This document shows, piece after piece, positions 57,121 through 59,659 of a stretch of DNA of 64,000 nt. The notes under the pieces are model-generated. The model saw only the letters and a list, made by a program, of their open reading frames with translations, was not told the origin of the DNA and searched no databases. The DNA lies in NCBI GenBank assembly GCA_964440325.1, contig CAYTRW010000003.1, positions 2,924-66,923 of the forward strand. The letters are read 5' to 3'. Within the stretch, counting starts at the first letter, position 1, and every line of letters starts with the position of its first letter. Source of the stretch: an uncultured Pseudomonadota bacterium (GTDB lineage: Bacteria; Babelota; Babeliae; Babelales; Vermiphilaceae). A program made the translations under genes and the position numbers.

Positions 57121-58455
57121 ATGAAGATTTTAAATAAAAAAGTATCTCTATGTGTGTGGAGCCTGCTTTGTTTTTCTTTTATGGTAAAGACGGTTCCGCG
57201 ATTGGTTGCAGAAGAAAAGATGCTTCATGATATACGTAGAAAATATGTTCGACAGGGTCAGCATATATCCCGTGCACAAAAACCCAAGTATCCTCAAAGA
57301 GCGCCTTTAAGGGTGCAGGCTAAACCATTAAAGTTAACGCAAAGTGAAAAAATACAGGCATATGTTTTTCTTGTAGCGTTTGATAATGCAAAGGGAATGT
57401 GGAACATCCTTCTTGGACGTGAGAATGATAAAGGTAAAGATGTATGGAAAGAGATCTTTTTTTATGGGTTAGAGTCTGAAATCCCGTCAATCGTGCAAAA
57501 GGAAACAGGTGGAGAAATTCTTATTTCTAAGCAAGATGTTTTAGCGGCAATAAGCGAAGCTTGGAATAATAATGAACGAGTATATTTTATTTCTGTGCCG
57601 TATAAAAGTGCTCATGCCTTAAATAAGGCGTTAGCGATAACAAAAATAGCAAAGAAAGAACAGTTAGTTTGGTATCCCGTTGATAACATAGTTAATTTGC
57701 ATCAAGGAATAGATATTAAACTTACCTACGGTGGTGGAAAATACGATGCGCCATTATGCCAAAAAACAACAAATATTATAAAAAACGTATGGAATACGGT
57801 AAAAAATAGATTGCCTAAAGGGCAGCAAAGAACTGTTAAAACAGTTTCTCAAAAAAGAGATCTTAAATTTTTAGAAACGTATTTACAGCAATACGTAAAA
57901 AATGTTTTTTCTGCAATCAACCAGAAACCATATTTAGCTCCGGCAGGTGGATGGAATGTATTAAAAGGATCTGGCCGAGCAGTATTCTTTTATCATGCGG
58001 ATAAACCGTATTATGAATTTGCCAACTTTTATCAGCCGGCACCTATTTTAGTTGGAGGTATTCGATACAAAACGTCTGAGCACTATTTTCAGGCCCAAAA
58101 ATTTATGGGAAATCCACAAGTTCAAAATTATATAGCTCAAGCTCCAACCCCACGCCAAGCGTATTTACGGGCAAAAGAAAAGGGAGGAGGAAATTTGCAG
58201 GTGAGTGATGAATTTAGAGTAATGATTATGTTTCAGGCTTTAATCTTAAAATTTTTGCAAAATCCAGCTCTTTTGGAGGTACTCTTAGGAGTAAAAGAAG
58301 AATATATTGTAGAAGATACGGGTTCGGCAAATGTTGGCCCAAACCAGCATGATGATCCTTTTTGGGGGAATGGTCTTTCAGGAAATGGTCAAAATTATCT
58401 TGGAAGATTATTGATGTACCTAAAAGATTTGATACGTTTTGCAGATCAGTCATAG
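57121..58455 (+). CDS. Secreted two-domain protein: novel N-terminal domain plus C-terminal NADAR (YbiA/DUF1768-like) domain, paralog 1
   Basis: Signal peptide MKILNKKVSLCVWSLLCFSFMV. C-terminal AVFFYHADKPYYEFANFYQPAPILVGGIRYKTSEHYFQAQKF...DDPFWGNG...NYLGRLLM matches the NADAR core. Confidence 0.65.
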   Translation: MKILNKKVSLCVWSLLCFSFMVKTVPRLVAEEKMLHDIRRKYVRQGQHISRAQKPKYPQRAPLRVQAKPLKLTQSEKIQAYVFLVAFDNAKGMWNILLGRENDKGKDVWKEIFFYGLESEIPSIVQKETGGEILISKQDVLAAISEAWNNNERVYFISVPYKSAHALNKALAITKIAKKEQLVWYPVDNIVNLHQGIDIKLTYGGGKYDAPLCQKTTNIIKNVWNTVKNRLPKGQQRTVKTVSQKRDLKFLETYLQQYVKNVFSAINQKPYLAPAGGWNVLKGSGRAVFFYHADKPYYEFANFYQPAPILVGGIRYKTSEHYFQAQKFMGNPQVQNYIAQAPTPRQAYLRAKEKGGGNLQVSDEFRVMIMFQALILKFLQNPALLEVLLGVKEEYIVEDTGSANVGPNQHDDPFWGNGLSGNGQNYLGRLLMYLKDLIRFADQS

Positions 58456-58477
58456 GTAGTTTTTATAAGGATGTTTT

Positions 58478-59659
58478 ATGTATTTTTACAAAAAACTTTT
58501 ATTTTTTTTAGCATGCTCAACTATTTTTATAGTAGATGCTGCAGAGCAAGAAAAAGAGGTTGTTATACGGGTTATACCATATCTTTTTCAAGAAGATGGT
58601 ACGACTGTTTTTTTAAAAAAAGAACAGGTAGCGCCTGTTTTATGGAAAGATTTTGTAGTAAATGAGCAAGATTATGATGCTCTTGCGCAACGATTAACAA
58701 AAGAAACAAAAGGGTTATTTTCATTTAATTCGTATAATTTTTCAAAGGAGCCCGATATTTTTTTTGAGGGTGAAAAAACAAAAGGGAAGGTTTACTTTAT
58801 AGATATTTCAGATCAGGTAAAGATAAAAAAAGATTTTGTATATGATGAAAATAGTTTTGTTTTGATACCAGTCTTAGATCTTTTAAAGGCATCTCAAAAG
58901 CATATATATAAAGGAGTTCCTGTTTCTCGTGGGGTAATAAAGTTATTAACAGATAATTGGGAAAAATTTATCCAAAGCAAGCAAGAAAAACAGCGACAAG
59001 AGTATCAGCAAAAACTTTTTTCCTATGAGCTTTTCTTGAATAAGCTTATTCCTTCTCGAGGCTTGTTCCCTCAAGAGATGAAGGAAGAAGCAATGCCTGA
59101 AGCGATCTTCTTTTACAAAAAAGATTCACCGTATTATGAATTTACCAATTTTTATCCTGCAGAAATTTTCATTGATGGGTATATTTATCCTACAACAGAG
59201 CACTATTTTCAAGCACAAAAATTTATACATCATCCTGAAGTAATGGCTTTGATTAGAGAGAGCAAGAACCCTCGAGGGGCATATGAGGTAGCTGCACGAT
59301 ATAGACAAAATAAAAGAAAAGACTGGGATGAGGTAAGTATTTTAGTAATGTTTAAAGCATTGGTCTCAAAATTTGTGCAGCATCCGGACTTATTGCGCAT
59401 TCTTTTAAAAACGGGTGACAAACTCATTGTTGAAAATACGGCATTGGTTGGAAGGTCAGGGCATGATGACCCTTTTTGGGGAAATGGTAAAGAGTTTTCT
59501 GGAGAAAACTACTTGGGCAGATTGCTTATGGCATTACGGAGTTTAATCAGAGAAAATCCGCCACCTTTTTTTGTAATGCCTCAAGAAGACTTGTTGGAAA
59601 ATCCTGTGCCAGAAGCGCAGGGAAGGATTAAGGGAATTTTAAAATTATTTGGATTTTAA
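58478..59659 (+). CDS. Secreted two-domain protein: related N-terminal domain plus C-terminal NADAR domain, paralog 2
   Basis: Signal peptide MYFYKKLLFFLACSTIFIVDAA. C-terminal AIFFYKKDSPYYEFTNFYPAEIFIDGYIYPTTEHYFQAQKF...DDPFWGNGKE...NYLGRLLM. Its N-domain is alignable with paralog 1 (VWKEIF/LWKDFV; QKETGG/TKETKG; VYFIS/VYFID). Confidence 0.65.
   Translation: MYFYKKLLFFLACSTIFIVDAAEQEKEVVIRVIPYLFQEDGTTVFLKKEQVAPVLWKDFVVNEQDYDALAQRLTKETKGLFSFNSYNFSKEPDIFFEGEKTKGKVYFIDISDQVKIKKDFVYDENSFVLIPVLDLLKASQKHIYKGVPVSRGVIKLLTDNWEKFIQSKQEKQRQEYQQKLFSYELFLNKLIPSRGLFPQEMKEEAMPEAIFFYKKDSPYYEFTNFYPAEIFIDGYIYPTTEHYFQAQKFIHHPEVMALIRESKNPRGAYEVAARYRQNKRKDWDEVSILVMFKALVSKFVQHPDLLRILLKTGDKLIVENTALVGRSGHDDPFWGNGKEFSGENYLGRLLMALRSLIRENPPPFFVMPQEDLLENPVPEAQGRIKGILKLFGF

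Follow-up and report, generated by a model that had tools for sequence, protein, structure and literature searches.

I analysed a 64,000-nucleotide stretch of contig CAYTRW010000003.1 (hereafter called the window), in which two adjacent genes encode related proteins that I call P1 and P2. It was found that each protein combines a signal-peptide-like N-terminus with a Nudix-fold domain, whose Nudix box is degenerate, and with a NADAR domain at the C-terminus (Table 1). This architecture belongs to a recurrent, unannotated family and occurs here twice in tandem. The reading I favour, with a probability of roughly 45%, is that P1 and P2 may be Sec-exported effectors that remove ADP-ribose (ADPr), with the pseudo-Nudix domain serving as a recognition module. 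A preliminary description of this DNA had listed the two genes as tandem same-strand paralogs. This holds, as the open reading frame (ORF) listing places both on the + strand with a gap of 22 bp, and the two NADAR domains are 51% identical.

The NADAR identity of both C-termini, which had been read from the sequence in that description, was confirmed with the Pfam hidden Markov model (HMM). PF08719 matches P1 residues 289-439 with an E-value of 6.6e-22 (78.9 bits) and P2 residues 211-358 with an E-value of 3.8e-31 (109 bits). Both scores are well above the cutoff of 35.1 bits, and the matches span profile positions 1-163. The hallmark motifs YYEF.NF, EHYFQAQKF, and DPFWGNG, which had been pointed out earlier, were all found, and the structure models of both proteins have the alpha+beta fold of NADAR. 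The top PDB sequence match of the P2 NADAR domain is Escherichia coli YbiA (E 1.9e-23). Both proteins also pass the cutoff (73.7 bits) of TIGR02464, the model of the riboflavin-intermediate N-glycosidase, with 76.7 bits for P1 and 113.5 bits for P2. In the alignment with 8bau, E241 and E319 of P2 fall on the ribose-contacting glutamate pair E43/E125 of the Phytophthora nicotianae NADAR, and K248 lies seven residues past E241, the same placing as that of E88/K95 in the E. coli C7 NADAR (for the roles of these residues, see PMC11543638). In the family alignments, E241/K248 of P2 and E320/K327 of P1 are invariant or nearly so. The equivalent of E125 is E319 in P2 (IVEN) and E398 in P1 (IVED). This second active-site residue is Glu in the YbiA type, Asp in the BC4488/DarT1-linked type, and His in phage NADARs (PMC11543638). 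Since it is Glu, and not Asp or His, in P1 and P2, their NADAR domains were assigned to the YbiA subfamily, apparently with an intact active site. All four NADAR classes, YbiA included, hydrolyse guanosine-ADPr in vitro, with a cellular specificity that varies (PMC11125620), and YbiA-type enzymes remove ADPr from cytidine too (PMC12945103). The NADAR domains of P1 and P2 are predicted, from their sequences, to hydrolyse base-linked ADPr or a related N-riboside. As a separate observation, the NADARs nearest to that of P2 outside the fused family (47-52% identity; for example P0013, P0019, P0027, and P0088) belong to proteins of eukaryotic appearance whose tails are long and of low complexity or whose N-termini contain zinc fingers, one of them from the sponge Dysidea avara. 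There are hints that the NADAR lineage near P2 has been exchanged between eukaryotes and bacteria.

What is the N-terminal domain? It had been described as unrecognised, and a novel domain had been proposed. As judged from the structure models, it is a degenerate Nudix fold and not a novel fold. The AlphaFold2 model of P2 has a mean predicted local distance difference test score (pLDDT) of 88.4 and a predicted template modelling score of 0.81. That of P1 has a pLDDT of 82.7, with low confidence only at residues 46-72 (in the basic stretch) and 237-245 (in the linker). Both N-domains show the alpha/beta/alpha arrangement of the Nudix fold. In the Foldseek search with P2, YbiA and the Phytophthora NADAR came first, and after the NADARs came NUDT14, MutT/Nudix proteins, Dcp2, the Nudix-like domain of MUTYH, AraR, and the AvrM14 effector. 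No ADP-ribosyltransferase (ART) or macro fold appeared in the Foldseek searches of either model, and there is no ART match among the 42 ORFs of the window for which Pfam annotation exists (38 by scanning and 4 by precomputed matches). The suggestion that the proteins might be writer/eraser fusions was thereby rejected.

It had also been stated that N-domains of 190-260 residues align between the two copies. I found no significant pairwise alignment between them, either by BLASTP or by a 3-versus-3 hhalign comparison, and the conserved part covers only about 140-157 residues. Outside it, the N-terminal region comprises the signal peptide, a disordered stretch of basic character (residues 31-75 of P1), and a linker that is helical. 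The homology of the two N-domains is visible only through intermediates and the family profile, with RV.P.AF...EW.ILL, W.DF, ..(E/Q)T.G, VYF..VP, and F.W.P as bridging motifs. A k-mer-prefiltered search with the N-domains alone found nothing for P2, and for P1 it returned a pair of near-identical proteins from metagenomes. These results reflect the sensitivity limit of such searches, because 209 proteins were found at E <=1e-3 (67 of them at E <=1e-10) when a 156-position N-domain profile was compared exhaustively with 1.84 billion cluster representatives. In this search, the representative of P1 had an E-value of 2.6e-45 and that of P2 one of 2.2e-34. A full-length profile search yielded P0010, P0011, P0047, and P0083 with the same length and layout, and inspection of the sequences of P0015 and P0040 from the same search revealed a shared layout. 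Among 144 new representatives, 46 have a Pfam NUDIX match (best E 2.3e-14) and 42 have a NADAR match. With a NADAR HMM of my own, a C-terminal NADAR domain was detected in 51 of 153 family representatives. The previously unlabelled N-domain of these proteins can now be annotated as Nudix-like.

The Nudix box itself is dead in the NADAR-fused proteins. Full-length P1 and P2 have no match to Pfam PF00293 (NUDIX) at E <=0.01. When nine N-domains were scanned at E <=1, P2 again had no NUDIX match, and only one member matched at E 2.9e-4. In an HMM-anchored alignment, the distant non-fused relatives have a canonical box (DFGG...E...REF.EET.G), whereas the NADAR-fused clade has a conserved replacement, W-x-D-F...A..AL..QT.G, in its place. 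I scored the box on the four R-E..E-E positions and counted it as kept when three or more were present. It is kept in none of the 51 NADAR-fused representatives, as against 45 of the 102 non-fused relatives. The four positions are S, I, K, and E in P1 and Q, R, K, and E in P2, so that each retains one, and the GG and the loop glutamate are missing too. Neither protein contains GX5EX7REUXEEXGU with its metal-binding glutamates. The glutamates of the Nudix box bind the catalytic metal. Because the box has been lost, the N-domain is probably not a pyrophosphohydrolase. Since the replacement pattern is itself conserved, the sequences suggest that the N-domain of the fused clade keeps a non-catalytic function.

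There are known proteins in which a Nudix fold with a degenerate box sits beside another functional domain. The NrtR effector domain (3gz5/3gz8), the C-terminal domain of MutY/MUTYH, and AraR, all among the structural matches of P1 and P2, use a Nudix-like domain for ligand or lesion recognition. The Nudix-like domain of NrtR binds ADP-ribose. MutY resembles P1 and P2 further in that an N-glycosylase is paired with a Nudix-like domain, which is the reader in MutY. The partner domain is NADAR in P1 and P2, as opposed to a winged-helix domain or a helix-hairpin-helix glycosylase in the NrtR/MutY/AraR group. Past the fold, no sequence relationship to this group is detectable, and ligand binding by P1 and P2 is predicted by analogy.

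Are P1 and P2 exported? The N-terminus of P1 reads MKILNKK-VSLCVWSLLCFSFMV-KTVPRLVA, followed by the predicted cleavage site and EE, and that of P2 reads MYFYKK-LLFFLACSTIFIV-DA, followed by the predicted cleavage site and AE. All signal-peptide calls in this study were made with my own heuristic for the n-, h-, and c-regions. By this heuristic, both N-termini have a basic n-region, an h-region of 13-15 residues, small residues at -3/-1, and no later hydrophobic segment. This is the pattern of a typical Sec signal (a charged n-region, an h-region of 7-15 residues, small residues at -3/-1, and no further transmembrane segment), and the signal peptides proposed earlier for both proteins stand in this sense. 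The same heuristic finds signal-peptide-like N-termini in 109 of 120 family representatives and in 14 of 114 control NADARs, several of the latter being bacterial signal-peptide proteins themselves. In most family members, the homologous N-domain begins at residue ~20-35. The signal region of P1 is 97% identical in a related contig (L001), with a ratio of nonsynonymous to synonymous substitution rates (dN/dS) of 0.06. Because it is under such strong purifying selection, this region must be translated. P0010, an ortholog of P2 with 55% identity, has kept the hydrophobic N-terminus and the DAA c-region. Taken by their sequences, P1 and P2 are predicted to be exported by Sec. The idea that P2 may be a lipoprotein was rejected, as its FLAC sequence is not a proper lipobox, nor is it conserved in orthologs.

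The N-termini could instead be uncleaved membrane anchors or annotation artefacts, which would make P1 and P2 membrane-tethered or cytoplasmic YbiA-like housekeeping N-glycosidases. The signal calls come from a heuristic and not from a dedicated predictor, the AlphaFold2 model of P1 shows one long helix at residues 4-44, and the TIGR02464 scores would suit such enzymes. However, the h-regions are only 13-15 residues long and are followed by small residues at -3/-1. The hydrophobic N-terminus is kept in ~91% of a family whose members are otherwise 17-30% identical, and in P1 it is under the purifying selection mentioned above. A riboflavin-pathway enzyme would be expected to be fused to or clustered with rib genes and to reside in the cytoplasm. 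Neither the annotated ORFs of the window nor the neighbourhoods of the relatives include a rib gene, and the N-termini resemble export signals. I regard this explanation as very improbable. The YbiA-type NADARs that are known (E. coli YbiA, 2b3w; P. nicotianae NADAR, 8bau) are cytoplasmic and mostly single-domain proteins, whereas P1 and P2 begin with a signal peptide and have a pseudo-Nudix domain before the NADAR domain. The clade that includes P1, P2, and P0011 also differs from them in a 7-residue insertion before DPFWG.

A secreted NADAR protein had been called unexpected, and this view has to be tempered. The export signal itself is less surprising than it seemed, because about half of the window ORFs of at least 150 residues have signal-peptide-like N-termini, and because there is a precedent in Dependentiae; in the isolate Chromulinavorax, 44% of the coding sequences have signal peptides, and Sec is the export route of its putative effectors (PMC6561590). 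Normally cytoplasmic enzymes of the window, namely a peptidase M3, a HAD hydrolase, and a LigD-type 3'-phosphoesterase, are among the signal-like proteins. In a lineage of the Dependentiae kind, one would normally take a "cytoplasmic" enzyme with a signal peptide for an exported effector. The ORFs at 8935-11028 (- strand) and 40259-41245 (+ strand) and ~20 others, including those for the peptidase M3 and the HAD hydrolase, have such N-termini. The LigD_N DNA 3'-phosphoesterase (212 residues; 17053-17691, - strand; E 1.2e-40) has a signal-like N-terminus (MLILFCFFMLCFNFCANA) and, by its sequence, looks like a further nucleic-acid enzyme that is normally cytoplasmic but is exported in appearance.

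If the proteins pass the inner membrane, they might stay in the periplasm, and the main rival explanation is a periplasmic N-glycosidase that acts on small molecules. In this case P1 and P2 would be salvage or detoxification enzymes of the periplasm or envelope for host-derived N-ribosides, such as NAD- or ADPr-derived compounds, damaged nucleotides, or riboflavin-type intermediates, and would provide a bacterium that is metabolically dependent with ribose phosphate or bases. Such a role is in keeping with the fact that a Sec signal peptide alone delivers a protein only to the periplasm. It is also in keeping with the TIGR02464 scores of both proteins, with E. coli YbiA as the nearest solved sequence, and with an apparently host-dependent organism that has many hydrolases with signal peptides (PMC6561590). 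On the other hand, riboflavin intermediates and NAD+ are not expected to be periplasmic metabolites. In a salvage route one would expect the Nudix partner to be the NAD/ADPr pyrophosphatase, yet it is catalytically degenerate in all fused members. The divergent and possibly recombined P2 allele (see below) and the RING and ankyrin fusions of the Nudix-like family fit conflict proteins better. I consider salvage unlikely, although it is to be taken seriously.

For the effector reading, evidence of host-directed use comes from those fusions, from the eukaryote-like domains of the window, from the Babeliales annotation of a family member, and from the Sec-exported effectors of Dependentiae. In the Nudix-like family, I found C-terminal fusions to RING (P0155) and to ankyrin repeats (P0169, 1021 residues), and single fusions to Macro and to HEPN. 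By their domain content, the RING and ankyrin fusions point to action in a eukaryotic cell. Several family proteins have a canonical Nudix domain followed by a second domain of the family. P0148, the one family member that bears a source name, lies on a 1.5-Mb contig under the annotation "NADAR family protein [Candidatus Babeliales bacterium]". Among the genes of the window are those of an ankyrin-repeat protein (13006-14004, + strand) and a eukaryote-type sulfotransferase, Sulfotransfer_1 (36992-37933, + strand), and such eukaryote-like domains are typical of host-associated bacteria. The window probably derives from a Dependentiae-like intracellular parasite that infects protists. Exported Nudix-fold proteins that act against eukaryotic hosts are known, namely Melampsora AvrM14, Ralstonia RipN, and oomycete Avr3b (PMC4981494), the first two of which are among the fold matches of P1 and P2. 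In these proteins the Nudix box is active and they work as hydrolases, whereas P1 and P2 have lost it and are predicted to have their catalysis in the fused NADAR domain.

Another candidate role is immunity. P1 and P2 might protect the envelope-proximal or released nucleic acids of the bacterium from exogenous ADP-ribosylating toxins of hosts or competitors, as analogues of the DarG1 or YbiA-YarT antitoxins. NADARs are indeed antitoxins to DarT1 and YarT (PMC11543638, PMC11125620), and there is a weak similarity to the candidate defence family PDC-M42C of PADLOC. The NADARs associated with DarG1/DarT1 and the phage anti-DarTG1 NADARs belong to the same superfamily as P1 and P2 and have the same predicted target bond, that between guanine and ADPr (G-ADPr). 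Unlike the DarTG1-type NADARs, P1 and P2 have no adjacent DarT or ART gene, their neighbours being a 502-residue signal-peptide protein and groESL. No ART gene was found among the annotated window ORFs or in the neighbourhoods of distant family members. The active site is of the Glu type (YbiA), and not of the Asp type of DarT1-linked NADARs (PMC11543638) or the His type of phage NADARs. P1 and P2 are also predicted to be exported, whereas the cytoplasm is where an antitoxin against DNA damage would be expected. Against the anti-phage NADAR model NF053876 (DS32_2), P1 and P2 scored 59 and 84 bits, far below its cutoff of 240. With this score and only weak PDC-M42C matches in PADLOC, membership in a defence system was rejected. 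Given that there is a signal peptide, that partners are missing, and that the model scores stay below threshold, the roles as antitoxin, as part of a defence system, or in a cytoplasmic riboflavin pathway fit poorly, and immunity seems improbable.

The notion of exported erasers or host-directed effectors, raised in the preliminary description, remains the most plausible one, given the architecture, the export-like N-termini, and the family fusions. The proposed mechanism is as follows. P1 and P2 would cross the inner membrane via Sec, as their N-termini and the family-wide pattern suggest. They would then be released towards the eukaryotic host, as would fit the biology of the lineage and the RING and ankyrin fusions in the Nudix-like family. 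There, the NADAR domain would cleave the N-glycosidic bond that links ADP-ribose to an exocyclic base amine in DNA or RNA (G-ADPr or the cytosine adduct, C-ADPr) or the bond in a related N-riboside, as may be expected because the catalytic residues are conserved and each NADAR class tested is active in vitro. The pseudo-Nudix domain would cleave no pyrophosphate but may recognise ADP-ribose, a nucleotide, or nucleic acid, by analogy with NrtR and MutY. The net role, which is speculative, would be to erase ADP-ribosylation of host nucleic acids or ADPr-derived molecules during infection. Base-ADP-ribosylating ARTs of the pierisin type are present in Amoebozoa (PMC12945103), and they are a possible target class.

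Several points weigh against this reading. Activity and localisation are deduced from sequences and models, the signal-peptide assignment comes from my own heuristic, and recognition by the pseudo-Nudix domain is argued by analogy. Sec export reaches only the periplasm, and the 64-kb window revealed no dedicated pathway for secretion to the host. The placing of the organism near Dependentiae is drawn from a single annotated family member and from the style of the genome. Neither an ART partner nor a known ADP-ribosylation target is linked to the locus. YbiA and a phage NADAR did not rescue cells from DarT1 toxicity (PMC11125620), and the in vitro G-ADPr activity of NADARs does not predict their physiological substrate.

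How did the gene pair evolve? In a rough neighbour-joining tree of NADAR domains, drawn without support values, the P1 and P2 families group together. The sequences suggest an old, lineage-specific tandem duplication. A comparison with contig L001, which has the same gene order, revealed a mosaic. The amino acid identities are 99.5% for GroEL, 100% for GroES, 95.8% for the 502-residue protein, and 92.9% for PBP, against 87% for P1 and 55% for P2, and the seven flanking genes lie between 82 and 100%. The nucleotide identity is 88-98% across most of the flanks and ~78-85% across rpe. It falls to 59-82% from ~58000, where the P1 NADAR domain starts, to 59753, and returns to 97% exactly at the groEL stop codon. 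The divergent block consists of the P1 NADAR domain, all of P2, and the terminator spacer. Its synonymous divergence (dS) is 0.8-1.06, and that of the seven flanking genes is 0.27-0.59. With a dS of 0.076, the Nudix-like domain of P1 stands out for its conservation. The dN/dS of P2 is 0.41, the highest among the nine genes compared. As far as two or three alleles can tell, the mosaic fits a conflict locus at which either an allele was replaced by recombination or divergent alleles have persisted for long. The divergence of P2 was counted for effector-like evolution.

A bolder and rather doubtful version of the effector reading takes P1 and P2 as a polymorphic locus for effectors in a protist parasite of the Dependentiae type. 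They would be the first secreted NADARs, each with a pseudo-Nudix "reader" of ADP-ribose and a NADAR "eraser", and would counter a protist defence by base ADP-ribosylation. Once inside the host, they would strip ADP-ribose from the guanine or cytosine of host or bacterial nucleic acids, and the defence would consist of pierisin-like ARTs or PARPs, for example. If so, the addition of ADP-ribose to nucleic acids is an arena of conflict between protists and bacteria.

The reversal of guanine and cytosine ADP-ribosylation by NADARs has been shown only recently, and to my knowledge little has been learned of their physiological roles outside toxin-antitoxin and phage contexts. In at least about 50 sequence clusters, a NADAR domain that is predicted to be exported is permanently coupled to a catalytically dead Nudix domain, apparently in bacteria living in protists. 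P1 and P2 are candidate host-directed erasers rather than housekeeping enzymes. If this is true, NADAR activity may serve outside the cytoplasm of the producer, the pseudo-Nudix domain is a candidate natural reader of ADP-ribose or nucleic acid, and the eukaryotic hosts of these bacteria may defend themselves by base ADP-ribosylation. The component domains are known, but their combination, with predicted export and a uniformly inactivated Nudix domain, seems to be new and is apparently centred on protist-associated bacteria. No description of it was found in the accessible literature; an earlier mention of a Nudix-NADAR combination in de Souza & Aravind 2012 is possible.

The features of the locus are listed in Table 1. 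According to the ORF listing, P1 and P2 lie between the upstream 502-residue ORF and groEL-groES, which converges from downstream. The claim of a strong bidirectional terminator after P2 was verified. A perfect A6-stem-T6 hairpin with a GC core at 59702-59720 lies between the convergent stop codons of P2 and groEL. Its predicted folding energy is -27.6 kcal/mol (z = -9.2), and none of 200 shuffled sequences was equally stable. A consensus terminator scan did not pick up this hairpin. A promoter scan of the + strand in the intergenic region before P1 made no confident call.

Table 1. Features of the P1-P2 locus. Positions are those of the 64,000-nucleotide window.
Feature	Position	Strand	Details or basis
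502-residue upstream neighbour	55466-56974	+	signal peptide; C-terminus ...VGATF (terminal Phe)
Putative promoter region of the P1-P2 unit	56975-57120	+	AT-rich intergenic; placed by position
P1 coding sequence, 444 residues	57121-58455	+	signal peptide, basic stretch, pseudo-Nudix, linker, NADAR
P1 signal-peptide-like N-terminus (residues 1-30)	57121-57210	+	n/h/c heuristic; likely cleavage after RLVA
P1 basic, mostly disordered stretch (residues 31-75)	57211-57345	+	13 K/R of 47; pLDDT <50 at residues 46-72
P1 Nudix-fold domain (residues 76-232)	57346-57816	+	degenerate Nudix box
P1 NADAR domain, YbiA type (residues 286-439)	57976-58437	+	E320, K327, E398 conserved
P2 coding sequence, 393 residues	58478-59659	+	signal peptide, pseudo-Nudix, long helix, NADAR, C-terminal tail
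P2 signal-peptide-like N-terminus (residues 1-22)	58478-58543	+	n/h/c heuristic
P2 Nudix-fold domain (residues 24-165)	58547-58972	+	degenerate Nudix box; profile search, Foldseek
P2 NADAR domain, YbiA type (residues 208-360)	59099-59557	+	E241, K248, E319 conserved; Pfam, PDB alignment
P2 C-terminal tail, low confidence	59558-59656	+	pLDDT 45-50; ends ...LKLFGF
Bidirectional intrinsic terminator hairpin between P2 and groEL	59689-59733		sequence and RNA fold

The block had been regarded as an autonomous module, and this is true in part. In its close relatives the unit is maintained: the metagenomic contig L001 has PBP, DeoC, the 502-residue protein, P1, P2, groEL, groES, and rpe in the same order as here, and in another such contig, L002, P1 precedes the start of P2. 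The idea does not extend to the distant family members, which are single genes in unrelated housekeeping or WD40 neighbourhoods. The 502-residue neighbour has no Pfam, NCBIfam, or PDB sequence match, and its earlier label as an outer-membrane protein was not confirmed. In 80 JGI metagenome NADAR loci, the sole case of a Nudix-like and NADAR pair was L075 (5218-6525), in which the two domains are in adjacent ORFs in different frames; the fusion is either split here or interrupted by a frameshift. In 80 viral NADAR loci, no Nudix-like partner was found.

Some minor observations concern other segments of the proteins and of the window. The basic stretch of P1 could be a nucleic-acid binding or a host-targeting segment. 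P0012, a signal-peptide-NADAR protein, has a K-rich stretch resembling it. The P2-type proteins end in short tails that resemble one another and close with an aromatic residue, as in P2 itself (Table 1), P0010 (...IFGGWF), and P0011 (...FLGWY), and such a tail is absent from P1. This tail could be a sorting or membrane-association motif. In the whole window (1-64000), no rRNA, tRNA, tmRNA, or Rfam family was detected at threshold. Near its end (63257-63889, - strand), a protein of 210 residues without a convincing family match has a signal-like N-terminus, a coiled-coil-like middle, and a C-terminus with ~5 copies of the R/P/V-rich repeat RPAVRRN.A.

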